Shown: positions 1-15,857, counted from the first letter of the stretch. The stretch is 64,000 nt of DNA from Candidatus Nomurabacteria bacterium (GCA_943356525.1 CALRFG010000001.1:7278-71277); one strand, 5' to 3'. The notes: generated from the letters alone by a model not told the origin. Translations and numbers: made by a program.

Positions 1-993
1 TGAATTTAATTTACTTTGAATAACGATATTTTGAAAAGTGACACCAGAACCCATACCTGCACCAGCCGAATAACATAGTTTATTTTCAGTTCTCAATTTT
101 TCAAAAACTAAATCACTTATTACTAAAACAAGAAGTCTCAACGTGGCAATCTTTTTTGAATCTTTTTTCAAATCAAATATAGGTAATATTATTTCAGCTT
201 CTATACTAGCTTGTTCTTCATCACCAAGACCGATATCTATATATTTATTTTCATATTTATTTTCTTTAGGCTTTCCAATTGTTTTTAAGAGATTTGGAAT
301 CTCTGACTTTTTACCAACAGAAACTTGCTTCAGGTTTATGAGTATTGTATTTTTTATATCTTCAAGATTGTCTAAGTTTCCTGCAATAAAAATCTTAAGA
401 TTACTTTTAACCAAAAACCTATCCTTAGCTTTTCTTAAATCCTCAGGTGTATTTTTCTCTATAGTATCTACCCAACCAATAACACTATTGGTTCTTAGTA
501 ATTCAGGACAGTCAAATAAATTATTTTTTCTTAAAGTAATCAAATATTTTAAATATGTCTCATTTGTATAATATCTCCACAACTCTTGAACAATAACCTT
601 CTTTTCACTTTCCACCGCTTCTGGGTCAAATTTGGGACTAATAACAGAACTGAAGAATACATCTAATACATGCTCAGCATCTTGTGGTAGACATTTACCA
701 ATAATTTGTAGTTTATATAAACTTGTATTTGCATTTGCTGTTCCAAGTGTGTATTTATTTGAGAACTCTCTATAAGCTTTCTCATCTTCTATAAGATCGG
801 AACCTTTCAAAATCACATGCTCTAAAAAATGAGCACATCCTTCAAGCCCTGGTTCATCATGCATAGCACCGTAATCAAACACGAGTTTGATATGAACACA
901 CGGGGCTGTGGATATATGTTTATAATAAAAAGGTACACCATCTACAGAATCTTCGGTAAAAACATACGGATCTTCTTTAAAATATTTAGTCAT
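1..993 (-). CDS. M16 family (pitrilysin/insulinase-like) zinc peptidase, partial (C-terminus runs off the window start)
   Basis: Reverse-strand translation gives MTKYFKEDPYVFTEDSVDGVPFYYKHISTAPCVHIKLVFDYGAMHDEPGLEGCAHFLEHVILKGS... with the inverted zinc-binding HxxEH motif (HFLEH). ATG is the complement of 991-993 and a TATAAT lies ~10 nt upstream. The frame stays open to position 1. The + strand ORFs 143..571 and 829..1053 are antisense to it. Confidence 0.75.
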   Translation of the reverse strand, partial: MTKYFKEDPYVFTEDSVDGVPFYYKHISTAPCVHIKLVFDYGAMHDEPGLEGCAHFLEHVILKGSDLIEDEKAYREFSNKYTLGTANANTSLYKLQIIGKCLPQDAEHVLDVFFSSVISPKFDPEAVESEKKVIVQELWRYYTNETYLKYLITLRKNNLFDCPELLRTNSVIGWVDTIEKNTPEDLRKAKDRFLVKSNLKIFIAGNLDNLEDIKNTILINLKQVSVGKKSEIPNLLKTIGKPKENKYENKYIDIGLGDEEQASIEAEIILPIFDLKKDSKKIATLRLLVLVISDLVFEKLRTENKLCYSAGAGMGSGVTFQNIVIQSKLNS

Positions 994-1069: not shown

Positions 1070-1463
1070 GGGGATGACCGGATTCGATATATAGATCTTT
1101 AACACATATGCGTAACCGAGTACCCTCAAATCTCGTTAAACTTTGAGGAACCCTATGTGCTAAAACACAGAAAGCTGTTGCGTCCAATTTTGGATTCAGC
1201 AACTCTTTCGCCTTTGCTAGAGCCTAGCTCTACCTCATGCGAGACATCTTACTACTATCTACTTTGTGTAGGAGATAAGGTGTAATATAGCAAAGTAAGG
1301 TTAAGGTGTTATCTTGAGCCTTGATCGAGATTATAAGATTAGTTTATATGATGTTTGGATGTGTATTTATAATCATATAAATGAAGTTTGAAAACATATC
1401 TATGTTACGTAGATGTATGTGTTATACCTATATAGACGAGGGTTCAACTCCCTCCATCTCCAC
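1070..1463 (+). ncRNA. ssrA: tmRNA (ssrA)
   Basis: 5' GGGGATGACCGGATTCGA matches the tmRNA 5' consensus GGGGnUGAnnnGGAUUCGA. The 3' end GACGAGGGTTCAACTCCCTCCATCTCCA is a tRNA-Ala-like T-arm plus acceptor stem. The acceptor pairs GGGGATG with CATCTCC, including the G3-U70 wobble. An internal reading frame ends ...SNSFAFARA-stop, which is a candidate tag peptide. Confidence 0.85.
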
Positions 1464-2982: not shown

Positions 2983-3281
2983 CCCTCACAGAGAGCCTTC
3001 ACAGGACTCACACTGTGGGGGCTTTTCTTTTACACCTTAGAGTACCTAAAAATAAACTCCAAAACCTCACCAAAATGATTTGATAAATTTGCCCTCGTGT
3101 CCACAAAATTAGAAACAACTCCTTAGGGAGTTGTTTTCGATATAGGTGATGAGAAAGTGCATAGTTGCACTTTCGGGTGAGAGTTGAAAAGCTTTGCTAT
3201 ATTTTTGAGGGGCTTTGCTCCGAAAAAATAGCAAAGGTGTACTGAGACTGTAAGTCTCTACCCCCCCCTCCATCTCCACAA

Positions 3282-3300
3282 AGCAGAAATAACCCGAAAG
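3282..3300 (-). terminator. rho-independent terminator downstream of the 993-aa gene
   Basis: On the minus strand AACCCTTTCGGGTT forms a hairpin followed by a T-rich tract (ATTTCTGCTTTG), just past the stop codon at 3336. Confidence 0.45.
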
Positions 3301-3335
3301 GGTTGTTTCTTTATCTTAAAATATAAAACTAATTA

Positions 3336-6317
3336 CTAAATCTCTGAAATCTCAGGACTTATACGGCAAATAGTAGATGATGAAAGATTTACACCTGGAC
3401 CTCTACAATTAACAGTTATTTTATGATTTGTTTTTAGATTATCAACACTTACAAATCCAGAATTTGAACCGTTGATAGGATCTAAATTAATTATTGGATT
3501 TGTAGGTGTTAATATGTTTTCGCCGATAGATACGACATCACAACTTGTATCATTTGGCATATTTTCTATATCCCAACTTACAACACATTTTCCACCCTTA
3601 TCAACAATTACATTAGGTTCTTTATTTAAGATTATCGAAGCTGAGTTTTGGGATCCAATATCATCTATTGCAGGAATAATACATGTTGTATTAACCGTTC
3701 TAAGCGTATTTGAATCTCTACTTTTATCAATTATATTAACAGGTATGGTTTGCTTTGATGTTGTCTTATTTATTGTAAACGAATTAGTTATAATTTTTTG
3801 GTTATCTTTATAATATTCTATTGTCGCACCATTTAAAGGACTTGCTATCAATATCACATTTGACACCGAAGGGGAGTTATTGTCGGAAACTGAACAACTT
3901 AGAAACAATTTACATTCTTTACTGTCTTTTTCATTGCTGACAGTTTCATTTGTTGTTTTATTGAAGCAAACCATATTTTGGGAATTACACCCACACTCAA
4001 TTTCATCGGCAGGAGGAGTTTCTATATTATTGACACATTGACCTTCAGGGTTTTTTATATAGTTTGTATCAATATAGTCACCGTCCAATGTTTTTTTTCT
4101 TATTATGTTACCAAATTTAATATAATCACCTTCTAGGTTTGGACAAACTGAAGTTATTTCACCAGGACAAACTCCTGCACCTGCAACACATACTTCTTGT
4201 GAATATATTCTAAAAGTTGAGGTGTTACCCCGAGCTTGATTTTGTAACATTATATAAAACTTATGTTTTCCTGGGGTTGTAGGCATTTTATATGTACCAG
4301 CATTTATATTATAGTTACTACTTCTTTCATGACCTCCAGCATTATAATAACCATTACCCCACGCTGAGGAAGCCCATAAATATTTACCTGATTTACCTTG
4401 AACGTTAGTATTTGTAAAACCAGTTTGAGGATAGGTTTTATATGGACCTTTAATAACCTCTGGATGACTTTGAACGCCACCTATTGAACTTATAGCAGTC
4501 CAAAAAGAAGCAAGTCTAGGTAAAACTCGTGGCCCCCACGTATCACCAGAATAAAATAAAACATTAATCCATTGAATTGTTGTATATCTTACTGATCTGA
4601 AATTTCTTGAAGTTACCTGTTGCCAAATATGTGCATCGTATATACCATTTAGATTAAAATTCCACCAATCATCACTAGGACCAAATAGATTGTTATTAAA
4701 TCCAGCATTATTACAAGCAACATAAGATGCATTAACCTGTAAAGTAAAGTCTTCACCCGGTTGATATATTCTTACATCACTAGGTTGAGGTGAGATAAAA
4801 GAATTTAATTTAAAATTTTGGGAAGAGTTAGCTTGTGGGGCTAACTCTGTTGTAAAAGCCTCCACTTTTTGAGAGATTAAAAATAAAGGAGTTAGTGCAA
4901 TTAAAAATAGCAAAGTACTTTTAGGCACTTTTTTATTTATTTTTTTTCTGAAAAATATAATTATAATAAATATTATAGGTAATAATGAAAGTAGAATAAT
5001 ATATGTGATTCTTATAGAATATTCTCCTAAATAAGTATTTTCTAATTCTTTCTCTGAAGGTAGATTAGTTTCATATCTTGATAAAATATCACCTTCTTCA
5101 TCAACCATCTCAGCTTTTATAATAAAACCGCTTACTGTTTTTGATATATCAACCTCAATAGCAGTAGTACTTGCTGCCGATAAATTTATTTGTGTCTGAC
5201 CTTCGCCTATAATATTATTCTTTCTATCAAAAATAGATAATTTTATCATTGCGGTTTTATTCACAGCAGTATTTTGAGTGTTACTAGCATTTTCTGTTGA
5301 ATCTTTTTCTATTTGATCGTAAAAAAACTTAGCAACTTCCTCAGAAGACATACTTGATATATCAACACCTTCAGGTTCACTTGTATCAAAATCATCAGTC
5401 TGATCATTTACAGCATTAATATCAAAAAAATCTTCATTTGTTATATTTAAAGGAATTCCAGCATATTCAATATTAACTTTAATTTTTTCTCCCTTCTTCG
5501 CGTCCAAAGAAGATGTATTTATGTTTAATATTGTACCTATATTACCTTCTAAAATATATCTAAAATAGGAAGATGGTATATAGTATTCGAGATTTTCAAA
5601 TGTTAAAACCCCAGCATAGACGAGAGGATTTATATTTGTTGGTAATTTCAATCTATACTCCTTGTTAGAATCCAATTCAATATCATCTAGTATGATGGTT
5701 TCTAAGGGTTTATTATTCAAAGTTGTTCTATTGTATAATTCTATTTTAGGTTTAACAGTAAGTCCTTTAATACCTATCTTGTCTATTTTGAATTTGATAA
5801 AAATATTTCCATCTTTTTTTACTGTTGGACCTTGTTGAGGGAAAAAATTTTTTCCTTCGGCTTCAATATTAAAATTATTTAAAGTTAAATTTTTTTTATT
5901 TTTTTTACTTTTTATAATTATAGGTTTTTGAATCTGATTTAAAAAAGTTCCATCTTTTGAGTAAACTGTAACAATAAAATCTGCTTTTGAGTTTAATTCG
6001 GTATTTAAAATATGTTCAAAATTAAAAACCTTATTAGATTTTGATTCTAAATAAATATTTTTTCCATATTGGAAATCGCTTTCTATTATTTGATTATCTA
6101 AACTTGTGGATATAAAAGTTTGTATATAAATATCTGACTCTCTTGAGGTTGAATTATTAAATATTCTAACGGAACCTTTAATAATTTCTTTTTCATTGTA
6201 TTCTATTTTATCTATAAATAAATCATTTACATAAACCCCTTCATCTTGGGCTAGTATTGTATTTTTATTACTAAAAATACAAAAAATAAATATGGAGATT
6301 AAAAATATTTTTTTCAT
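3336..6317 (-). CDS. giant surface protein, paralog 1: signal peptide, N-domain, 2-TM hairpin, C-domain, then conserved C-terminal domain
   Basis: 993-aa ORF. Signal peptide MKKIFLISIFIFCIFSNKNTILA. Mid-protein TM (YIILLSLLPIIFIIIIFF), then RKKINKK, then a second signal-like hydrophobic segment (LLFLIALTPLFLISQKVEA). C-terminal ~90 aa (VDKGGKCVVSWDIENMP...ICRISPEISEI) is shared with the genes at 6375 and 8064. Confidence 0.8.
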   Translation of the reverse strand: MKKIFLISIFIFCIFSNKNTILAQDEGVYVNDLFIDKIEYNEKEIIKGSVRIFNNSTSRESDIYIQTFISTSLDNQIIESDFQYGKNIYLESKSNKVFNFEHILNTELNSKADFIVTVYSKDGTFLNQIQKPIIIKSKKNKKNLTLNNFNIEAEGKNFFPQQGPTVKKDGNIFIKFKIDKIGIKGLTVKPKIELYNRTTLNNKPLETIILDDIELDSNKEYRLKLPTNINPLVYAGVLTFENLEYYIPSSYFRYILEGNIGTILNINTSSLDAKKGEKIKVNIEYAGIPLNITNEDFFDINAVNDQTDDFDTSEPEGVDISSMSSEEVAKFFYDQIEKDSTENASNTQNTAVNKTAMIKLSIFDRKNNIIGEGQTQINLSAASTTAIEVDISKTVSGFIIKAEMVDEEGDILSRYETNLPSEKELENTYLGEYSIRITYIILLSLLPIIFIIIIFFRKKINKKVPKSTLLFLIALTPLFLISQKVEAFTTELAPQANSSQNFKLNSFISPQPSDVRIYQPGEDFTLQVNASYVACNNAGFNNNLFGPSDDWWNFNLNGIYDAHIWQQVTSRNFRSVRYTTIQWINVLFYSGDTWGPRVLPRLASFWTAISSIGGVQSHPEVIKGPYKTYPQTGFTNTNVQGKSGKYLWASSAWGNGYYNAGGHERSSNYNINAGTYKMPTTPGKHKFYIMLQNQARGNTSTFRIYSQEVCVAGAGVCPGEITSVCPNLEGDYIKFGNIIRKKTLDGDYIDTNYIKNPEGQCVNNIETPPADEIECGCNSQNMVCFNKTTNETVSNEKDSKECKLFLSCSVSDNNSPSVSNVILIASPLNGATIEYYKDNQKIITNSFTINKTTSKQTIPVNIIDKSRDSNTLRTVNTTCIIPAIDDIGSQNSASIILNKEPNVIVDKGGKCVVSWDIENMPNDTSCDVVSIGENILTPTNPIINLDPINGSNSGFVSVDNLKTNHKITVNCRGPGVNLSSSTICRISPEISEI

Positions 6318-6368
6318 AATAATATTATATATTATCTACTTTTTAAGTGCTAATTAAATTAGTTAATT
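6318..6368 (-). promoter_or_regulatory. duplicated upstream/promoter region (copy 1) of the paralog family
   Basis: The ~45 nt immediately upstream of the start codon (AATAATATTATATATTATCTACTTTTTAAGTGCTAATTAAATTA) is near-identical to 7907..7951 upstream of the 7906 gene start (2 mismatches). AT-rich with TATA-like boxes. Confidence 0.5.
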
Positions 6369-6374
6369 AAAATC

Positions 6375-7547
6375 TTATATTTCGTTAATTTCTGGGTTTA
6401 CACGACATACAGCAGACTCAGTCAGAGAAGGATTTAGGTTAACTCCTGCACAGGTTATACTAAACTTTGTATTTGACTGTATATCACTTTGGGTATATGA
6501 ACCTGTTGACGTACTGTTTACGGTAGCGTTAACTTTAATACCATCTCGTTTTAAAGTACACTCTGTGCCTGGTGGCATATTTTCTATTTTCCAAGACAAT
6601 TTACAGTCTCCACCTTTATCTAAGGTTACTAGGGGTTTTTTTGTTATTTTTATTGATGGTTTAGCTACCGGATCTTTTGGTTTGGTGATTGTTTCACTTG
6701 TATCTGCTTCACATTTAACAGTTTTTGATGTGTTATCAAAACTATCAGTCACAGTAACATCCATAGTCTGAAGTGACTTTGTATTTGGAATAGTGTATGT
6801 ATATGATGTTCCAGGATATTGTATTTTAGTATCTTTACCTGTACTGGTATACGTAATTGTTGCTATGTTCTGAGAAGGCGTTACTGTAAATTCAACATTT
6901 AAATTATTAATACTAGCATCACAGACTGCACTTAGACCGCACATAGGGGCGTTTGCGTCTCTTGTTTCCTCCTCACTGTTCCGTGTACCCACCCAATCTC
7001 TACCAACGCAGGCATAAGTTACGGGAGATAAACATTCACCATTTATCCCTTCTAATCCTTCAGGTATCTCTGTTTGTATTTCATTAATGTTTGAACATAA
7101 ATCTGGAATAGTTAGTACACAGTCACCGTTAACGTCAAGCTCATATCCTTCAGGTATCTCTGTTTGTATTTCATCAATATTTGGACATACATCGGAGACC
7201 TCTTCTTCAACGCAAAGACCTGCCCCTGTTACACAATATGTATGCTCAAAAAGTATATATGCTGAAGGTTTATAATATGTTAATTGTTTACCTTGTTCAG
7301 ATGTACCGTAGAGAGGGTTATAGTAACTTGAACAATACTCTCCATAACCAGCACTACTGGGGTCAGCATAACCCCCAGAACTCCCAGGACTCCAGAACCC
7401 ACAGGATGAAATAACAATAGGTCCGTTATAATATTCTCTAGGTTCATACGTATTCTCGACTGTGTTTCTGTATGCGTATATATATATATAGCATGTTTTC
7501 CAGGTATAGTTGATGCTTTGTACGGTTTTGTATATACACCAAATATA
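6375..7547 (-). pseudogene. paralog 2, C-terminal portion (frame 0), open stop-to-stop from 7547 with no start of its own; part of a frameshifted gene
   Basis: Hand translation upstream of the annotated GTG at 6992 continues in frame: ...SSCGFWSPGSSGGYADPSSAGYGEYCSSYYNPLYGTSEQGKQLTYYKPSAYILFEHTYCVTGAGLCVEEEVSDVCPNIDEIQTEIPEGYELDVNGDCVLTIPDLCSNINEIQTEIPEG...GTRNSEEE... This aligns with paralog 1 (RIYSQEVCVAGAGVCPGEITSVCPNLEGDY...). It ends with the shared CTD ...AVCRVNPEINEI. Confidence 0.6.
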
Positions 7548-7906
7548 TTACGCGTTACTTTAGTAGCGTTTTTAACATTTCTCCACCATACAACATCTGT
7601 TATGTAACCAAATACATTAAACGAGTATGCATTTTCTGTTTCATTTTTAACATAAAAATCAACAGTATACGTTTCATTATTACAATCAGATAGAGAAGTG
7701 AAGAAAGTTAGATTAAAAGCCTCGCCTGGTGAATAGTTTTTACCTAAACGGTAATCATAAGGTGAAGATACTGATGATATCCTAAATTCTGGAAAATCTG
7801 ATGATCTAACCGGATAAGCCTCAGCATTAACCCAAACATAACCTGACAAAAGCAACATTACAAACATTAATATTTTCTTATTTAAAAATAAAAACATTTT
7901 TTTCAT
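7280..7906 (-). pseudogene. paralog 2, N-terminal portion (frame 2): signal peptide plus start of C-domain; apparent frameshift joins it to the 6375..7547 frame
   Basis: 208-aa ORF MKKMFLFLNKKILMFVMLLLSGYVWVNAEA... Its residues ...YKASTIPGKHAIYIYTHTETQ align with paralog 1 ...YKMPTTPGKHKFYIMLQNQ. The homolog then continues in the other frame, so a +/-1 frameshift lies around 7400-7450. Confidence 0.6.
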
Positions 7907-7951
7907 AATAATATTATATATTATTTACTTTTTAAGTACTAATTAAATTAA
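7907..7951 (-). promoter_or_regulatory. duplicated upstream/promoter region (copy 2)
   Basis: AATAATATTATATATTATTTACTTTTTAAGTACTAATTAAATTA is near-identical to 6318..6362. Confidence 0.5.
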
Positions 7952-8055
7952 TCAATTTTCACTGACCTCATATCCATATCCTCAACATAATCAAATCTTA
8001 TTACAATATCTGGTTTTATTTCATCACTTTCTATAACACTAGGCCATTCTATAAA
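7947..8055 (-). repeat. duplicated fragment of the tsaE 3' end (last ~35 codons plus stop), a remnant of segmental duplication
   Basis: ~109 nt match 10932..11040 (the tsaE C-terminus ...IEWPIIIENDEIKPDIVIRFDYVEDVDMRSVKID-stop) with a few mismatches. It sits between the 943-aa gene stop and the paralog 2 promoter copy. Confidence 0.75.
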
Positions 8056-8063
8056 CACATGAA

Positions 8064-10895
8064 TTAAATCTCATTAATAGTCGGGTTTACACGACAGATA
8101 CTAGAAGATACTATGGTTGTACTTGTGTCTCCTGAACAGCTTATGGTGTATCTTGTGTTTTGATATATTGGAGGTGATATCCATTTACCAGAGTTACCTG
8201 AAAGCGATTCAGGAGTTATGTCGCCGCCACTCAATGTACACGTCATACCAGTAGTAGGTCTATTTATTATCTCCCAGTCAAGTGTACAAGTACCACCTTT
8301 ATTTAAAGTTATGGCTGGGGTTTTTTTAATGATGATTTCAGTTAAGGCTGTTGTGTTTTCAACAGAACAAGTTGCGTTTGATTTAGAACCATCAGAATCA
8401 GTTAAATTCACCGTTAGTGACAGAGGTGTTCCTGGTGTTGTAGTTGTTGAATATATGTAGGTGTATGGTGGAGATGATTTTAGTGTAGATACATTTGGTG
8501 AGTGTGTATATGTTACATTTCCTATTCTGTTAATAGGGGTAAATGTAAAAAATGTCTTATCTAATGAGGTTGTTGGTGAACAATATGAATTGAAAGCACA
8601 TTGTGGAGAGTTTAGTGTTGTAGTTGTTGCTACCCCACCTGTTGTACATGTATTTGTTCGAGTATTGTTACATGAACATACCTGTTGGGGGGTAGTTGTG
8701 GCTTCGCATGTATTATCTGTTGCTGATTCAATCCACACACTATTTAAATTACAAGTTCTATCAGATTGACAAACTATCAAAGATTGAAAGAAAGGTGCTA
8801 TTGTTTTATATTTAGAATATGTGGTTGATGTGGCCACAAAAGTCCACAAAACATTATATGCTGGTATAACGGTATCATTTTTTGTTTTTTCCTCAACTTC
8901 ACCATTATATAAACCCTTACCGCTGTATTTATAAGATGATGAATCTACAAGCAATGGGTCTCTACAAGTAGCGTTTGATGTTAAACCTAGTTCTATTAGA
9001 CTGTATCCTCTAGTCCAAGAATCGGTGTCATGTCCGGTATTATATAACCTAAATACTACATTACACGAACCATCATAAGACATACTGGGATAATTTTCTT
9101 TATAGGCACCATAATAATATTTCTGAGAAGCACCTAGACTACTTGATTTTGCATATACATTACCAAATTTGAACTCAAAAATAGGAAATCTTATTTGCCA
9201 CCAAGAACTTGTTTGTTCCATCAAAGCATAAAAACCTTTATTTTGATTTTTTAAACTAGGTATATCAGCTGGGTTTATACCTAGATAATCACAAACATTT
9301 ACAGTTTGATCACTCCATGAACTAGTAGGGTGTTTTACAGGTGTCATGTACACACTACCTTTTATATATGTATCACTAAGACTTGTTGTACCGTCACTGT
9401 TTGTACATGTTGTTATAGATAATAAATTACTGTTATTTTCATAAGTATCAGTATTAACAACTCTAGATTTACACATAGATGGTTCAATCTTACCTGCTTC
9501 AATTACTCTAACTTTTGCACCCATAGTATTTGAATCAGCACCTTTGTATACAGATGTAACAATAACCTTACAACTACCATCATATGTTGCATAGTTAACA
9601 TTTCTTTTTCTTCCTCCTGGATCAAAAGTCACGGTACTTGCAGTACCTTTTTTAAAACTGAAAATGTGATACCTTTTTTTTAGCCAAGCTGAAGTAGCTG
9701 AATCAGAAATAACATAAAAGTTATCATTACTTTTAAGGTTACTCATATTAACACAAACATCAACAGTAATAGAAGCAGGACTAGAGGCTGTGGTTATAAT
9801 ATTACCAGTTGAAAAATTTTTTCTAACCCTAGCGTCAGTTGTTGAGCAACTCTCATTCTGTTGGCAAACAGATGTGGTTTTTATATCTTCAAGGCATGTA
9901 TCGGCAGGTTTGTTTACACCACCACAAGTTTCAACTGCTGAAATATTTGATGATACAAACAAAGCTAAAATTATTAGTAGTAACAAAAATAAACCAGCAA
10001 TCACCTTTTTACTTATTTTAGTTTTAAAAACAAAAAATAATATAACCATCAAGGCAATCATCATACCTAAAATTATATAATATATATTATTACTGTTTGT
10101 TTTTTTTAAATCAACAGTTTTAGATTGGGTCAATATTACTTGACCATCAATATCTTTTATGTCTATTTTTAATACAACTTCACCTTTTAGTTTTGATAAA
10201 GCATCTATGTTTTCATCAACAATAATACTACCTTCATTAAAAAACTTCTTATCTGATTCTTTTTTAAATATTTCAACACCTTCTTTTGTTAACGTAACAA
10301 CAATTTTATTATCCTGATCAGTATCAAATAAAGAAACATAGCCTATATTAGCCAATACGTTTGTATCCTCTATTATGATATCTGACGTTGTAAAACTATA
10401 AGCTGAATTTGACACATTAAATGAATAATCTAAATTTAATTTTTTATCACCTATTTCAATAGTTAAAATTAGGTCATATTTTCCACCTTCAAAATTTAAC
10501 GGTATTTTGATATTAATTTTATCATTTTCTAGAAACACCTCCTCAAAATATGTTTTATTTTCTTCTAAATATTGATTAAAACCTTCAATCTCTGTGTTTA
10601 TTTTTTGATTTGGTGTTTTTAATGAATAAACCAAATCCTTATTATCATTTTTAAAAATTTTCAAATCAATTTTAGGTTCAGTATCTTCGAATGAATTTTC
10701 TTTATTATCGTTAGTAAACGATATATTTAAGTTTGAATTTTTTGTCAAAGATATATTCTTTGATTCATCTTGTATAAATGAATCTGACTGTATTTTAAAA
10801 TTATCTTTAGAATATAAAACCAGTTCAGTGGAATAAATATTATTATTAATCAATAAATTTATTATTAATAAAAAAAATAAAGTGTATTTTCTCAT
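8064..10895 (-). CDS. giant surface protein, paralog 3 (same architecture: signal peptide, N-domain, 2-TM hairpin, Cys/Thr/Ser-rich C-domain, shared C-terminal domain)
   Basis: 943-aa ORF. Signal peptide MRKYTLFFLLIINLLINNNIYS. TM hairpin ...IYYIILGMMIALMVILFFVFKTKISKKVIAGLFLLLLIILALFVSS. CTD ...LNKGGTCTLDWEIINRP...ICRVNPTINEI. Confidence 0.8.
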   Translation of the reverse strand: MRKYTLFFLLIINLLINNNIYSTELVLYSKDNFKIQSDSFIQDESKNISLTKNSNLNISFTNDNKENSFEDTEPKIDLKIFKNDNKDLVYSLKTPNQKINTEIEGFNQYLEENKTYFEEVFLENDKINIKIPLNFEGGKYDLILTIEIGDKKLNLDYSFNVSNSAYSFTTSDIIIEDTNVLANIGYVSLFDTDQDNKIVVTLTKEGVEIFKKESDKKFFNEGSIIVDENIDALSKLKGEVVLKIDIKDIDGQVILTQSKTVDLKKTNSNNIYYIILGMMIALMVILFFVFKTKISKKVIAGLFLLLLIILALFVSSNISAVETCGGVNKPADTCLEDIKTTSVCQQNESCSTTDARVRKNFSTGNIITTASSPASITVDVCVNMSNLKSNDNFYVISDSATSAWLKKRYHIFSFKKGTASTVTFDPGGRKRNVNYATYDGSCKVIVTSVYKGADSNTMGAKVRVIEAGKIEPSMCKSRVVNTDTYENNSNLLSITTCTNSDGTTSLSDTYIKGSVYMTPVKHPTSSWSDQTVNVCDYLGINPADIPSLKNQNKGFYALMEQTSSWWQIRFPIFEFKFGNVYAKSSSLGASQKYYYGAYKENYPSMSYDGSCNVVFRLYNTGHDTDSWTRGYSLIELGLTSNATCRDPLLVDSSSYKYSGKGLYNGEVEEKTKNDTVIPAYNVLWTFVATSTTYSKYKTIAPFFQSLIVCQSDRTCNLNSVWIESATDNTCEATTTPQQVCSCNNTRTNTCTTGGVATTTTLNSPQCAFNSYCSPTTSLDKTFFTFTPINRIGNVTYTHSPNVSTLKSSPPYTYIYSTTTTPGTPLSLTVNLTDSDGSKSNATCSVENTTALTEIIIKKTPAITLNKGGTCTLDWEIINRPTTGMTCTLSGGDITPESLSGNSGKWISPPIYQNTRYTISCSGDTSTTIVSSSICRVNPTINEI

Positions 10896-10933
10896 ATACT
10901 AAATTATATCATTCTTTAAAAAAATACGTAGAA

Positions 10934-11347
10934 TTAATCAATTTTCACTGACCTCATATCCACATCCTCAACATAATCAAATCTTATTACAATATCTGGT
11001 TTTATTTCATCATTTTCTATGATAATAGGCCATTCTATAAATATAAGGTTTTCTTTATCTTCTAAATATTCTTCTATTCTTATCTTTTGTAAATCTTTAT
11101 AAGACTCCAACCTGTAAGCGTCTATGTGTATCAATTTTTTAAAATTTTCTATAGGAAATTCATAGCTTTTTAATATAGTAAATGTTGGACTTGTTATATC
11201 AATATTTAAATCTAGTTGCTTACACAGGTTTTTTGTAAAAGTTGTCTTACCAGAACCTAAATCACCCTGTAAATAAACAACAGTAGCCTTATCTTTGTTA
11301 GTTATAGATTTTAATTTTTTTATAAATTCTTCATAGATATTTTCCAT
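10934..11347 (-). CDS. tsaE: tRNA threonylcarbamoyladenosine biosynthesis protein TsaE (YjeE-like P-loop protein)
   Basis: 137 aa. Walker A GDLGSGKTTF, an SPTF motif, and the overall small YjeE architecture. Confidence 0.8.
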   Translation of the reverse strand: MENIYEEFIKKLKSITNKDKATVVYLQGDLGSGKTTFTKNLCKQLDLNIDITSPTFTILKSYEFPIENFKKLIHIDAYRLESYKDLQKIRIEEYLEDKENLIFIEWPIIIENDEIKPDIVIRFDYVEDVDMRSVKID

Positions 11348-11419: not shown

Positions 11420-12526
11420 TTAGATATTTTCTATAGTTAGTCTTTTTTTAGCTTGATAAATGAAGGCAAACACTGCTCCTAATATCAGAACCATAGTTGC
11501 AACCATGTAGTCAAAGAAACTTAAAGATAGACCTGTTGCAGGCAACTGACTTAGATAAACTCCTGATACAGGTGTTCCTGAAGTTATACCAGGTGTTAGA
11601 CTTACTGACGATCCACCAGTGTATGAAGGTGTGTATGAGTTGTAATAGTTTCCGTAAACAGAGTTATTGTTTTCAAAAGTAACATTACATGTTTTTGTAA
11701 TAATCTCTTGATCAGATCTTATTGTAATATTTATGTATTTTTTACCAGTTGTGTAAGATGTAAATGATGTAGATGCACCTGAAACACTGTTTATATCACC
11801 ACCCCATATGTAAGTATAGTTACCTATACCACCTGTTGCATAAGCCGTAGCTGTTACTGATTGACCAGGTCTAGGGTTTGATGGAGTTATTGTACAATAA
11901 CCATCTAACAAAACACGATTAGGGTTATGAACTACAGCATTACCAGTTGGGTTTGTATAAACATATACATTGTTATTGTTAACATTATTGTTTATAGCTG
12001 TAGCAGTTGATGATGAGTTTGAGTTTGAAGTTGAAGTTGAAGTCGAGTTTGATAGGTTGGTGTTTGTATTGGCGTTATTATTTGATGTAGTGTTTGATGA
12101 ATAGTTTGAATTAGGTATAAATGAAGATGTGTATGATGAACCATATGATGGTAAAGAGTATCCACTGTAATATGAACCACTGTATGATGGTAGAGAGTAT
12201 CCACTATAACTAGAACCACTATATGACGGCGTGTAGTAAGACGGAGTATATGATGATCCGTAGTTATATGATGGTGAAGAATATGAGGGTGAAGAATATG
12301 AAGGGGTGTATGATGGTGAAGAATAAGAATACACAGGAGAGTATGAGTAAGTACTTGGACCTGAATAACCATAATTTGAGGTATATCCACCACCAGTCAT
12401 GATACCAGGACCTCCAGTTCCTGAAAAAGAATTATCTTTTCCCGCGAAAACCACACCAGGTATCATAAATATAGCAAAAACTACCATAATTATTGTTTTT
12501 TTGATTTGTTTGTTTGTTTTTAACAT
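11420..12526 (-). CDS. LPXTG-anchored cell-surface protein with Ser/Tyr/Pro-rich repeats
   Basis: Signal peptide. Repeats of the form SPSYTPSYSSPSYSSPSY and YSGSYYSGYSLPSYSGS. C-terminal sortase signal LPATG, then a hydrophobic segment, then KKRL. Confidence 0.75.
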   Translation of the reverse strand: MLKTNKQIKKTIIMVVFAIFMIPGVVFAGKDNSFSGTGGPGIMTGGGYTSNYGYSGPSTYSYSPVYSYSSPSYTPSYSSPSYSSPSYNYGSSYTPSYYTPSYSGSSYSGYSLPSYSGSYYSGYSLPSYGSSYTSSFIPNSNYSSNTTSNNNANTNTNLSNSTSTSTSNSNSSSTATAINNNVNNNNVYVYTNPTGNAVVHNPNRVLLDGYCTITPSNPRPGQSVTATAYATGGIGNYTYIWGGDINSVSGASTSFTSYTTGKKYINITIRSDQEIITKTCNVTFENNNSVYGNYYNSYTPSYTGGSSVSLTPGITSGTPVSGVYLSQLPATGLSLSFFDYMVATMVLILGAVFAFIYQAKKRLTIENI

Positions 12527-12621: not shown

Positions 12622-13398
12622 TTATTTGTGAACAACTTTGAATGTTGTTCCTGTTGGTAGTTCATAAATCCACCTTGCAACTTCTCCGTTGTGGCGGTTA
12701 CACCCAGCACTATTCCCAGTCTCAGACCTGTTGCCAGATATGTCACCTCGATGAGTATAATTGCCACTATCATTTTTGTCACCTATATGGTGGTCGATAT
12801 GATAAGCATATGGCATAAAGCTTTTTCTGCTCCTAGACCACCTACCAGGTAAACCTTTGTGTTCTTCATTACCTTTTTCTGACAGGGTGTGAATACCCTC
12901 AGAAAGCCACGCTGATTTATCTTTTGAGGTCGAATTTCTAACAACTCCAATGATTTCACCGCCGGCATTTATAAGGTGTGTAACACCTAGACCACCGTCA
13001 AAATAGTAACAAATGAATGTTGCTATTTTTTGATCAACAGCAATCCATGATACAGTCAAAGGGTTTTGTGCCGAAACATCAACCAAACTATAGATAGTTT
13101 TCAAATCACCTTTTAGGGGTAAAATGATTTCGGTTGTGTTTTTGGCATCAAAATATTGATACCATTTGAATGGGTCAATTTCTTGAGCCCAAGAAAGGTT
13201 GAAGATTTTCTGGAATTTTTCTGGAACACTTTTATTTGGTCCATTTATTCCCCAGTAAACATAGTCCGGGCTATCCGGAATACCTACATTTAAACCTTTG
13301 TACTCAAAGGTTTTTGCATGTAAGTTGGAGTTGGTTAGAGTTAGTAAAAGTGACAAAATTAATGCCGCAAAACAAGTGATTTTTAAGTTAAGTTTCAT
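12622..13398 (-). CDS. hypothetical secreted protein
   Basis: 258-aa ORF with an N-terminal signal peptide (MKLNLKITCFAALILSLLLTLTNSNLHA). The ORFs 12537..12782 and 12783..12968 are alternate frames inside it. Confidence 0.6.
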   Translation of the reverse strand: MKLNLKITCFAALILSLLLTLTNSNLHAKTFEYKGLNVGIPDSPDYVYWGINGPNKSVPEKFQKIFNLSWAQEIDPFKWYQYFDAKNTTEIILPLKGDLKTIYSLVDVSAQNPLTVSWIAVDQKIATFICYYFDGGLGVTHLINAGGEIIGVVRNSTSKDKSAWLSEGIHTLSEKGNEEHKGLPGRWSRSRKSFMPYAYHIDHHIGDKNDSGNYTHRGDISGNRSETGNSAGCNRHNGEVARWIYELPTGTTFKVVHK

Positions 13399-13442
13399 AC
13401 TGTATATATTATATCATATATAACAATAATGTCAATGAAAAA

Positions 13443-13475
13443 ACCCAGAGCGTTAATAGCTCTGAGTTTGAATAT
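13443..13475 (-). terminator. rho-independent terminator downstream of the lipoprotein gene
   Basis: On the minus strand CTCAGAGC-TATTAAC-GCTCTGGG is followed by TTTTTT. Confidence 0.55.
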
Positions 13476-13493
13476 TTCACTGTAAATTAAGGG

Positions 13494-14030
13494 TTAATTG
13501 ACAGGAAACATTTTTCTGATTTCGGCTGGAACCTCCGATTCTGGAACAAAAATCGTTTGAGTCCTTATGCTCACAGGGTTCTTTTTCTGTTCAAGTTTAA
13601 CAAAAAAAGTTCCGTCGGGGTCATACATCCCAGATAAAGCCCTTTTTGCAAAGGGGATATATTCCTCCCCTTGAGGTAGAGTACCTTTGTCACTTAGCTT
13701 TTTTGAAGCCATTTGAGAGATTTCTCTTTCAACAAGGTTAATTCTTTCGGGTGTTATTCCAGAACCACGAGCAGGAACGAGTCCGACTGTGGCAGTAACA
13801 CTGCCGCTATAGTATGGTGTTTTTTTAGTAACATTAACACCTTTTAACTGTTTTACGGTTCGTGTTTGGGTCTCCGACACCTCTCTTAAACCATCTTGAC
13901 CTTGTAGGTTTTGGATATAGGGCCGGATTGCCAGCGGTTGACCCTCTGGGACAAAGTGTACACAGGACGAGAGGCAAAGGATAGCAAGAATAATAGTGAC
14001 AGTGACGACGATTTTAACGATATTTTTCAT
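13494..14030 (-). CDS. putative lipoprotein (relatively GC-rich gene)
   Basis: 178 aa with a signal peptide and lipobox-like ILCLSSC. Local GC is ~40-45% against ~30% for the surroundings. Confidence 0.6.
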   Translation of the reverse strand: MKNIVKIVVTVTIILAILCLSSCVHFVPEGQPLAIRPYIQNLQGQDGLREVSETQTRTVKQLKGVNVTKKTPYYSGSVTATVGLVPARGSGITPERINLVEREISQMASKKLSDKGTLPQGEEYIPFAKRALSGMYDPDGTFFVKLEQKKNPVSIRTQTIFVPESEVPAEIRKMFPVN

Positions 14031-14174: not shown

Positions 14175-15857
14175 ATGACAATAATCTTTGATGAAGATAA
14201 GAAAAACCAACAACTCAAACAAATGAGACAAGAAGAAGATGAAAGACTTGTAAAAATGCTTTCGGATCGATACTCTATTCCTTATATAAACCTCTCTACA
14301 GTTTCTATAAACACTGACGCACTTCGATTACTTGATCAAGAGGAGTCTAAAAAATCTGAATGTGTTATTTTTGATATTGTCGGTAAAAAACTTTACCTTG
14401 CTTTATATAATCCATTAAATTCAAATATTGAAGTGACTGTAGATAGTTTAAAAAGAAAAGGATATGAAATAGTTTTTCACATAGCATCAATGTATAGTGT
14501 TGAAAAAGCATTTAATTTTTACAAAGATTTATCTTTTGCTGTTGAAACAGAGGCGGGTTCATTGGATATATCAAATAATGAAATAGAGACGCTTGTTGAA
14601 AAAACACAAAGTCTTGATGATATTAAAATTTTTATTGAAGAAGCTTTGAAGGAAAAAAAGAGTCACAGGCTTTCAAAACTTTTGGCTGTTATTATGGCTG
14701 GAGGTCTTGCAACGAAAGCATCTGATATACACATAGAAGCAGAAGATTCGTATTCAAAACTTAGATACCGTGTCGATGGTGTTCTAATAGAAACTTCTCG
14801 TTTTGACCTTGAAACATATCATTCACTTTTATCTCGTTTAAAACTTTTATCAGGACTTAAGTTAAATATAAAAGAAAATTCACAAGATGGAAGATTTACA
14901 ATAAAAATTTATACTGCGGATGTTGAGATCCGTGTTTCAACTATACCAGGGGCATATGGCGAGTCTGTTGTTATGCGTATTCTAAACCCTAAATCTATCT
15001 CATCAGGACTTGAGGATTTAGGAATGACAAAAAAACTATATGACATTGTCATGAAAGAAATAAGTAGACCAAATGGTCTTATACTTCTAACTGGACCAAC
15101 AGGTTCTGGAAAAACTACAACTTTGTATGCATTTTTAAAAAAGACAATGTCACCTGAGTATAAAATAATAACTATCGAGGACCCTGTTGAATATCATTTA
15201 CCTGGAGTTGTCCAGACACAAGTTGATGAAAATAAAGGATATACTTTTGGTGAGGGTTTGAGATCTATTCTTCGTCAAGATCCTGATATTATTCTTGTGG
15301 GTGAGATACGTGATTCAGAAACAGCTTCAACAGCTATACAAGCATCACTTACAGGTCATTTGGTTTTCTCCACATTGCACACCAACAACGCAGCTGGAAC
15401 TTTTATACGACTTATGGACCTAGGTGCTGATCCAAAAACATTAACATCCTCTCTTCATTTAGCTATAGCACAAAGACTTATAAGAACATTGTGTCTAGAC
15501 TGTAGAAAACTTGTTGATATAACAGAAAGACAAAAAAGAATAATACAAGAAACAATAAATTCTTTAGATGGTTATGAAGAAAAAGATGAAATAAAAGAAA
15601 TACCTATGCAACTTTATCAAGCTGTTGGTTGTAAAGAATGTAATAACACTGGTTATAAAGGACGTATCGGAATACATGAAGGAATATTATCAAATGAAAA
15701 AATAGAAAAAATTATTGCAACCGGTCCAAGTGAAAGAGAAATTAAAGAAGCTGCTTTAGATCAAAAACTAATAAATATGAAGCAGGATGGTATTATAAAA
15801 ATACTGAAAGGAATAACAACGATAGATGAGCTAGAGAGAGTTGTTGATATATATTAA
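14175..15857 (+). CDS. pilB: type IV pilus / type II secretion ATPase, PilB/GspE family (paralog 1)
   Basis: GspE N-terminal domain (SDRYSIPYINLSTVSI). Walker A GPTGSGKTTTLYAF, Walker B ILVGEIRD, and tetracysteine CLDC...CKEC. The ORF track start at 13911 overlaps the opposite-strand gene; the Met at 14175 (MTIIFDED) is the likelier start. Confidence 0.85.
   Translation: MTIIFDEDKKNQQLKQMRQEEDERLVKMLSDRYSIPYINLSTVSINTDALRLLDQEESKKSECVIFDIVGKKLYLALYNPLNSNIEVTVDSLKRKGYEIVFHIASMYSVEKAFNFYKDLSFAVETEAGSLDISNNEIETLVEKTQSLDDIKIFIEEALKEKKSHRLSKLLAVIMAGGLATKASDIHIEAEDSYSKLRYRVDGVLIETSRFDLETYHSLLSRLKLLSGLKLNIKENSQDGRFTIKIYTADVEIRVSTIPGAYGESVVMRILNPKSISSGLEDLGMTKKLYDIVMKEISRPNGLILLTGPTGSGKTTTLYAFLKKTMSPEYKIITIEDPVEYHLPGVVQTQVDENKGYTFGEGLRSILRQDPDIILVGEIRDSETASTAIQASLTGHLVFSTLHTNNAAGTFIRLMDLGADPKTLTSSLHLAIAQRLIRTLCLDCRKLVDITERQKRIIQETINSLDGYEEKDEIKEIPMQLYQAVGCKECNNTGYKGRIGIHEGILSNEKIEKIIATGPSEREIKEAALDQKLINMKQDGIIKILKGITTIDELERVVDIY

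Follow-up and report, generated by a model that had tools for sequence, protein, structure and literature searches.

Tandem surface-protein genes beside tsaE in a Candidatus Nomurabacteria genome: three divergent alleles of one locus, probably stacked by recombination

The tsaE locus

A window of 64,000 nucleotides (nt) from Candidatus Nomurabacteria bacterium (GCA_943356525.1, CALRFG010000001.1:7278-71277) was subjected to comparative sequence analysis at positions 3,336 to 11,347, where three large genes, here named A, B and C, lie in tandem next to tsaE and encode predicted cell-surface proteins. All positions are counted from the first letter of the window. Its GC content is about 30%, and its closest named relatives are 'Candidatus Paceibacteria' and 'Parcubacteria' metagenome-assembled genomes (MAGs). 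Open reading frame (ORF) calls and Pfam matches gave the minus-strand order tsaE, gene C, a broken gene B and gene A (Table 1). An earlier reading made from the sequence alone (the sequence-only reading) had proposed that three consecutive minus-strand paralogs of 993 aa, about 510 aa (frameshifted) and 943 aa arose here by segmental duplication. The ORFs were found as it described them, and the word 'giant' that it applied to the proteins is an overstatement for about 1000 aa.

The paralogy was borne out by BLASTP and by profile-profile comparison. A matched B over A residues 466-993 (E 1e-28, 27% identity), C matched B over the last 200 aa (E 1e-20) and A matched C over the last 100 aa (E 6e-10), and the expected similarity of the three C-termini was thus recovered. 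Profile-profile comparison of A-type with C-type proteins gave E 1.5e-24 over the last ~320 columns and a weaker match (92.5% probability, E 5e-7) over the N-terminal module and transmembrane (TM) hairpin.

Two direct repeats lie among the genes. One, of 110 nt at 95% identity (7946-8055 versus 10932-11041), is the copy of the tsaE 3' end that the sequence-only reading had placed between genes, and the nucleotide identity it expected was found. The other, here called the P element, is 69 nt long at 93% identity (6300-6368 versus 7889-7957); a promoter/5' region occurring twice had been recognised correctly, and its size had been put too low, at ~45 nt. The 43-nt core of the P element occurred twice in the window against 0 expected from 100 shuffles. 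The region's best sigma-70-like match (TTAGCA-18-TATAAT, 6353->6324) lies in P copy 2, and the -10 box of this match stops 6 nt short of the ATG. No terminator-like site was found in any of the three gaps from tsaE to A (tsaE/C, C/B and B/A). The leftovers between the genes are the tsaE 3' end and the promoter/start element, in agreement with the proposed unit of tsaE end, promoter and gene. These non-coding leftovers are 93-95% identical, and the gene bodies within the array are without nucleotide similarity and share at most 31% amino-acid identity.

L009, assembled independently with MEGAHIT from a different sample, repeated the gene order and the frameshift of B without gaps at 99.8% identity over 16 kb, and a third assembly contained variants of A and C on contigs of equal recorded size (27,900 nt). 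The array is therefore not an assembly artefact.

Table 1. Features of the tsaE locus in the window and predicted layout of proteins A and C (aa, residues of the protein; a slash marks the end of the small-x-small motif)
Feature	Position	Strand	Evidence or comparison
tsaE, intact	10934-11347	-	Pfam TsaE, E 7e-31; 28/414 mismatches to L010
Gene C, 943 aa, C-type allele	8064-10895	-	C-type orthologs stand alone after tsaE in L003, L007
Proposed illegitimate junction, 8 nt, C stop codon to orphan tsaE fragment	8056-8063	-	Sequence read, alignment
Orphan tsaE 3' fragment: last 108 nt of coding sequence (stop at 7948-7950) plus 2 nt	7946-8055	-	2/108 mismatches to L010
P element copy 1: tsaE end, promoter-like AT-rich spacer, ATG, first 6 codons of B	7889-7957	-	
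Gene B, pseudogene (~510 aa if repaired), B-type allele: signal peptide and C-module, without N-module	6375-7906	-	
(TA)7 tract in B, +2 frameshift	7477-7490	-	(TA)6 in intact L010 ortholog
P element copy 2, 5' of A, with 10-nt tsaE-end remnant (6359-6368)	6300-6368	-	
Gene A, 993 aa, A-type allele	3336-6317	-	
Variation hotspot, A codons 772-888, penultimate Ig-like domain	3654-4004	-	22/31 SNPs
Terminator-like hairpin just 3' of A	3285-3310	not assigned	
A: signal peptide	aa 1-24		
A: beta-sandwich N-module	aa ~27-435		
A: TM1	aa 437-456		
A: K-rich loop			
A: TM2, internal signal-peptide-like helix	aa 468-487		...QKVEA/FT after the helix
A: central domain, Cys-rich linker, two Ig-like domains	after TM2		
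C: signal peptide	aa 1-22		
C: short N-module			
C: TM hairpin	aa 272-320 (9936-10082)	-	...NISA/VE after second helix
C: Cys-rich ectodomain, then C-terminal Ig-like domains	after hairpin		Ends CRVNPTINEI

The same slot in related genomes

Loci and proteins used for comparison are referred to by L and P numbers. The synteny common to the relatives is PBP-RuvC-RuvB-PilB, three small secreted proteins, tsaE and one large gene. At L001 this slot after tsaE holds one A-type gene (1009 aa, 75% identical to A), at L010 one intact B-type gene (518 aa, P0027, 80% identical to B) between flanks 95-99.7% identical to the window, and at L003 and L007 one C-type gene each (44-49% identical to C). L013 carries tsaE-B-A without C and aligns contiguously to window positions 8055-4282 at 91.9%. 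No stacked remnants were found 3' of the single genes in L001, L003 and L007.

The array members are thus not each other's closest relatives, since each resembles the single gene in another genome's slot far more than its own neighbours (75%, 80% and 44-49% versus at most 31%). Because the relatives carry a single gene of A, B or C type in the slot, A, B and C are best read as alternative, long-diverged alleles of one locus, and the window carries all three. The slot would be polymorphic in the population, with at least three allelic types of a predicted secreted, membrane-anchored surface protein. This result speaks against local duplication followed by rapid divergence. The synonymous divergence (dS) between A and its L001 ortholog was 0.43-0.47, below that of PilB (1.0) and tsaE (1.2), which argues that alleles move between lineages.

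In the C-type protein of L003 (L003 10140-10904) the last ~220 aa match B (33%, E 2e-30), a match longer than that to the window's C. This suggests that the C-terminal modules themselves have been shuffled between allele types.

Decay of gene B

Gene B reads for 208 codons in frame 0 from 7906 and continues in another frame; removal of 2 nt restores a 509-aa ORF (7906->6375). The defect is one extra TA unit relative to the intact L010 gene (Table 1). The (TA)7 tract was read directly in L002 and L009; in a third assembly the ORF that follows the frameshift (P0028) matches the window at 100% identity. L013 has an interrupted tract, and its B was inactivated by a separate event, a TAT->TAG change at codon 210. 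With its frame repaired, B showed a ratio of nonsynonymous to synonymous divergence (dN/dS, omega) of 1.06 against L010. On the strength of the frameshift, the independent nonsense codon and an omega of about 1, B is regarded as a decaying pseudogene, in genomes that also have A, with a phase switch as the minor alternative.

An alternative genetic code behind the apparent frameshift was considered and rejected, as TAA closes the first B ORF and the fault is a +2 insertion within the TA tract; the genes studied gave no hint of recoding. Among ORFs of at least 150 codons in the window, stops were 33 TAA, 14 TAG and 2 TGA, and none of those of at least 300 codons ended in TGA, so that TGA is rare but used. 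B also contains a 49-nt repeat (7055-7103 and 7145-7193, minus strand; 90-nt spacing, 92% identical) that encodes a duplicated Cys-rich unit, C-(P/S)-N-I-(D/N)-E-I-Q-T-E-I-P-E-G. This unit occurs as well in the B genes of L010 and L013 and in a further paralog, D, described below.

Variation and selection in gene A

With regard to DIVERSIFYING selection, the window and L009 are near-clonal, with 31 differing sites over 16 kb (28 in A and 3 in C) and zero single-nucleotide polymorphisms (SNPs) in the other ~10 kb of the comparison (p about 2e-14). The 351-nt hotspot of A (Table 1) holds 22 of the 31 SNPs (clustering p about 4e-30), 21 of them nonsynonymous and 1 synonymous, which corresponds to a crude omega of about 5.5 (binomial p 0.04, two haplotypes). 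Among six A variants, several hotspot sites show three different residues, and allele P0021 is mosaic. Against L001, the N-module of A had the smallest omega (0.18), and the last two domains had the largest (0.37 and 0.65). Taken as patterns of substitution, these results indicate that A is under diversifying selection in one Ig-like domain (codons 772-888).

The sequence-only reading had seen here a fast-evolving surface family, with strong divergence of the N-domains and most of the C-domains and a conserved end of ~90 aa. The surface-type proteins and the diversifying pressure hold, in another domain than the one it named; between strains the N-module shows the strongest conservation, the hotspot is the penultimate Ig-like domain, and the final ~100 aa evolve rapidly too.

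Formation of the array

The intact tsaE of the window differs from that of L010 at 28 of 414 positions (6.8%), spread along the entire gene. For the orphan tsaE tail the count is 2/108, and for the 481 nt upstream of the intact gene it is 8/481 (1.7-1.9%), so that tsaE is 4-fold more diverged than its flanks (Fisher p 6e-5). The tail of the intact gene on its own showed 7/108 mismatches. Alignment showed the tsaE-P-B junction of L010 to be collinear with the window's orphan tail, P element and B start. The excess divergence of the intact tsaE points to a foreign gene, and the orphan tail to the stump of the resident one. Most likely tsaE and C arrived together from another strain by one-sided homologous recombination, and a purely local duplication is hard to reconcile with a tsaE next to C that is foreign relative to its own flanks.

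We consider it probable that the array is a stack of pre-existing divergent alleles brought together by recombination and added rather than swapped, in which B decayed and A is diversifying, for proteins with a putative role in adhesion or recognition. The anatomy given by the sequence-only reading is kept, and the mechanism changes from local duplication to recombinational stacking.

From these comparisons we infer the following order of events. The chromosome would have begun in the state tsaE-P-B. P-A would have been gained behind B, with a joint 6 nt past the B stop (6369-6374) and an incoming piece that carried 10 nt of the tsaE end; this state would be the one kept in L013. A tsaE'-C segment would then have been taken up from a donor about 7% diverged, and would have been integrated on its left side by a homologous crossover near the tsaE start and on its right side by an illegitimate joint between a point 8 nt beyond the C stop and a point in the resident tsaE 108 nt short of that gene's end. 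Such an integration would leave the orphan tsaE tail and the duplicated promoter, a footprint of homology-facilitated illegitimate recombination (HFIR), as defined in passages of PMC3240628. B, by then redundant, would have decayed, here by slippage from (TA)6 to (TA)7 and in L013 by a nonsense codon, and A and C would have remained intact, A diversifying in one exposed Ig-like domain. The signature of HFIR, donor-type sequence on the homologous side and resident-type sequence beyond the illegitimate joint, is found in the mismatch counts given above. Uptake of free DNA is the presumed route and would be plausible in a pilus-encoding lineage; pilus and competence genes are widespread in the candidate phyla radiation (CPR) (PMC6744442).

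Protein architecture and family

A surface nature is indicated by signal peptides, by a TM hairpin with a K-rich loop (~10 aa between TM1 and the second helix) and by an AxA-type motif after TM2, the last of which is kept across the family. The small-x-small motif that follows the second hydrophobic helix reads VEA/F in A, ISA/V in C and AEA/Y in B (slash as in Table 1), and the extreme C-terminus of the two Ig-like domains reads C-R-x-N-P-x-I-x-E-x. The intact B-type protein begins exactly at the second helix, which serves there as its signal peptide. This hints at cleavage of the longer proteins at the same place, and suggests that A, C and D are cut at the internal signal-peptide-like helix, perhaps by signal peptidase, into an anchored N-module and a released C-module. 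Genes that seemed to encode the N-module only were considered as further evidence for a split architecture and set aside, as the short hits examined look like truncated fragments running past TM2.

AlphaFold2 models were used for domain layout only (mean predicted local distance difference test, pLDDT, 55-57; N-module 70-85), and every match in the fold searches with these weak models was to a generic macroglobulin/fn3/Ig beta-sandwich array. Sequence searches of Pfam, NCBIfam and PDB gave no match for A, B, C or D, and this also holds for the curated Ig-like and beta-sandwich adhesin domains (Big, invasin, PKD, fn3, macroglobulin-like), and no description of the family was found in the literature. 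In an exhaustive profile search 1,228 cluster representatives passed E<=1e-3, and 329 of them E<=1e-30; most match the N-module and hairpin only. The C-halves of distant members vary, and 4/6 of those scanned carry PKD, fn3, FG-GAP, Laminin_G_3 or InlB-repeat domains. The picture is of a predicted conserved anchor with exchangeable binding modules.

Several known classes of surface protein were tried and rejected. A type IV pilin or minor pilin is contradicted by the lack of an N_methyl Pfam match and by Sec-type N-termini (MKK followed by a hydrophobic stretch). A PilY1/PilC-type adhesin does not fit models that are all beta-sandwich, with no propeller match, and only paralog D lies in a pilus operon. 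Sortase (LPXTG) substrates were dismissed because A, B and C end in CRxxPxIxEI without a TM segment. We predict that A, B and C act at the surface of an episymbiotic-type bacterium, in adhesion or recognition on contact with other cells and possibly alongside type IV pili.

Paralog D and type IV pili

The full architecture is also present in paralog D (874-930 aa), whose C-half shares 42-56% identity with B. At L011, L012, L014 and L021 it lies between pilT and pilC in an operon of the form pilM-...-pilB-RR-pilT-D-pilC-pilins. An exact D protein, P0026, lies outside the window and is recorded on a contig of the same recorded size as the window's. L021 and L010 belong to the same genome, which shows that one genome carries both D and a slot gene. 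Omega of D was 0.06-0.3 in the N-module and 0.4-0.6 in the C-half, the latter similar to the neighbouring pilins (0.36-0.75). An alignment-based contig search gave 5 loci; L015 is on the L001 contig, and the other four have no pilus or tsaE neighbours. The distant homolog P0007 sits between DsbB and MurJ. Most likely tsaE is merely a conserved flank.

A wider proposal is advanced tentatively, and we hold it to be rather doubtful as a whole. It states that these genes belong to an undescribed Patescibacteria-wide family (~1,200 clusters) of two-part surface proteins, with an N-module anchored by a TM hairpin and a C-module released at an internal signal peptide; that one copy sits in the pilus operon; and that the slot copies may decide, strain by strain, which partner or host is recognised, with pilus-mediated DNA uptake shuffling them between strains and diversifying selection sharpening them in one Ig-like domain.

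Alternative explanations

In-situ segmental duplication of a unit of tsaE tail, promoter and gene, followed by very fast divergence, would explain why the genes are paralogous and flanked by tsaE-tail and promoter repeats. We nevertheless judge it improbable, given leftovers that are nearly identical beside gene bodies that have no nucleotide similarity, a far closer single-copy counterpart for each gene in the same slot elsewhere, an intact tsaE more diverged from L010 than its flanks, and the B-A state of L013 without C. A history in which duplication came first and alleles were replaced later is conceivable in principle, and is less parsimonious. A metagenome assembly chimera, in which co-existing alleles were joined via the shared tsaE tail, would agree with alleles that occur singly in related strains and with joints that lie at repeats, and is very improbable: order, junctions and frameshift are repeated in L009, from another sample and another assembler, the contigs that hold A and C variants in the third assembly are recorded with one and the same size, the repeats are 93-95% and not fully identical, and the joint from C to the tail is unique sequence.

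Phase or antigenic variation was weighed in two forms, with B switched by (TA)n slippage or serving as a silent cassette that donates to A, as pilS does to pilE, and is considered slightly less probable than duplication. The frameshift does lie in a dinucleotide repeat whose tract sets the frame, (TA)7 or (TA)6, and conserved 5' and 3' ends surround variable bodies, with mosaic variation of A among strains. Slippage is opposed by the absence of tract heterogeneity at the assembly level (L002 and L009 are both (TA)7, and the post-frameshift ORF of P0028 is identical), by the interrupted tract and nonsense codon of L013 and by an omega of about 1; the cassette is opposed by an A hotspot without nucleotide similarity to B, C or the rest of the window. 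Diversity-generating retroelements (DGRs) are common in CPR bacteria, and the hotspot could be imagined as the variable region of one, as its changes are clustered in a C-terminal domain and nearly all nonsynonymous, and five changed codons are AAY. We think this scarcely probable: no template-repeat copy of 3601-4050 was found in the window (64 kb of the 175-kb contig searched), nor any ORF of at least 250 aa with a YxDD-type motif, 9/23 variable positions have no A in either allele, and the tract, of ~350 nt, is not at the extreme C-terminus.

Several points weigh against the stacking of alleles and the recognition role as presented. The closest C-type proteins are just 44-49% identical, so that donor sequence past the C stop and microhomology at the junction are not comparable. 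The two tails taken alone (7/108 versus 2/108 mismatches) do not differ significantly (p 0.17), and the case is that of the whole tsaE against its flanks. L010 could have lost A, instead of A having been gained in the lineage of the window and L013. The two AlphaFold models are weak (hotspot domain <50) and their fold matches generic. The link to a pilus operon holds for D in this lineage only, and five more distant family loci have neither pilus nor tsaE neighbours.

Neighbouring loci

The tmRNA gene ssrA lies at 1070-1463 (+), and near-identity to L010 (99.7%) starts exactly at its 3' end, at 1464. On this basis a strain-variable island is taken to start upstream of PilB (~13885) and to stop at the 3' end of ssrA, which is a classic boundary for islands; no integrase was seen. 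Between PilB and an LPATG protein, a 178-aa lipoprotein-like protein and a 258-aa YkuD-like L,D-transpeptidase are encoded at 12622-14030 (-). They are 27-67% identical to their counterparts in L010 and L013, beside a PilB that is 95% identical at the nucleotide level, which indicates that the variable region exceeds the three-gene array. The LPATG protein (11420-12526, -) is a Ser/Tyr/Asn-rich secreted protein of 368 aa that ends in a sortase-type signal (LPATG, TM segment, KKR). Its gene contains 39-nt tandem repeats (12130-12325), and its 3' half is 98% identical to L010, the repeat-rich 5' part ~69%.

A second, 'orphan' PilB-like T2SSE ATPase of 560 aa (14175-15857, +) is oriented divergently from the surface-protein cluster. 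It keeps its synteny with RuvB, RuvC and PBP in all relatives and is separate from the pilus operon with D. An ORF of 424-439 aa (1663-2982, -) with an N-terminal TM segment and a Cys-rich C-terminus gave no Pfam or NCBIfam match; it is present in the window and L009 and has no counterpart in L010 between B and ssrA. Terminator-like hairpins (3113-3136 and 3285-3310) lie in the intergenic segments 3044-3137 and 3181-3310. These segments recur at 84-94% identity between genes at several sites in L001 and L010, and possibly represent a small repeat element of intergenic DNA.

Discussion

HFIR has been described in natural transformation of Acinetobacter, Streptococcus pneumoniae and Pseudomonas stutzeri, according to passages of PMC3240628. 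The tsaE locus would resemble it in having one end anchored by homology (the donor-type tsaE) and the other illegitimate, with foreign DNA added and part of the target duplicated; it differs in that recombination is here deduced from comparative sequence only. Surface-protein loci that are swapped on conserved flanks include pneumococcal pspC/pspA, capsule loci and Neisseria surface antigens. The likeness lies in conserved flanks (tsaE and promoter on one side, ssrA/SmpB on the other) around very divergent alleles, and in an allele history decoupled from genome history (dS 0.45 versus 1.0-1.2). In contrast to those loci, the alleles are stacked in tandem and not replaced, and the family is without Pfam, NCBIfam or PDB match. 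With Neisseria pilE/pilS the array shares a partial or inactive copy beside intact ones, conserved ends and a link to type IV pili. The copies here, however, lack nucleotide similarity, which rules out gene conversion; B, with a promoter of its own, decays neutrally; and the proteins are not pilins.

Paralog D recalls the non-pilin or minor-pilin adhesins of type IV pili, such as PilY1/PilC and PilX2 of Saccharibacteria (PMC12206443), as a large non-ATPase in a pilus operon with an exposed half as fast as the pilins. It differs from them by a Sec-type signal peptide and TM hairpin in place of a class III prepilin signal, and by the lack of a beta-propeller, and the copies in the tsaE slot are outside the pilus operon. 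An adhesion or recognition role for A, B and C would fit the close-range adhesins postulated for Saccharibacteria in the same source. Hypervariable surface proteins of CPR and DPANN symbionts have been reported for Gracilibacteria (hypervariation, PMC6851277) and Nanoarchaeota (PMC6142677). As far as the available passages of these two sources go, the likeness is strain-level hypervariation concentrated in predicted surface proteins of ultra-small symbionts, and the difference is another protein family, with a resolved recombination history and a domain-level hotspot here.

Variable surface-antigen loci and HFIR are both well known, and the locus brings no new biological principle; the protein family is undescribed. 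What it would offer, for an uncultured lineage, is an unusually clean natural record of additive recombination, where foreign tsaE and C are set against the stump of a resident tsaE. Partner recognition and attachment in CPR/Patescibacteria are little understood outside a few cultured Saccharibacteria. The locus supplies candidates for this function: a widespread, uncharacterised surface family with a paralog in the pilus operon, a slot where whole alleles appear to be exchanged or stacked between strains, and a domain of ~117 codons that holds 22/31 of the differences between populations that are clonal in other respects. Strains could be told apart by this locus, and proteomics or binding studies could target it.

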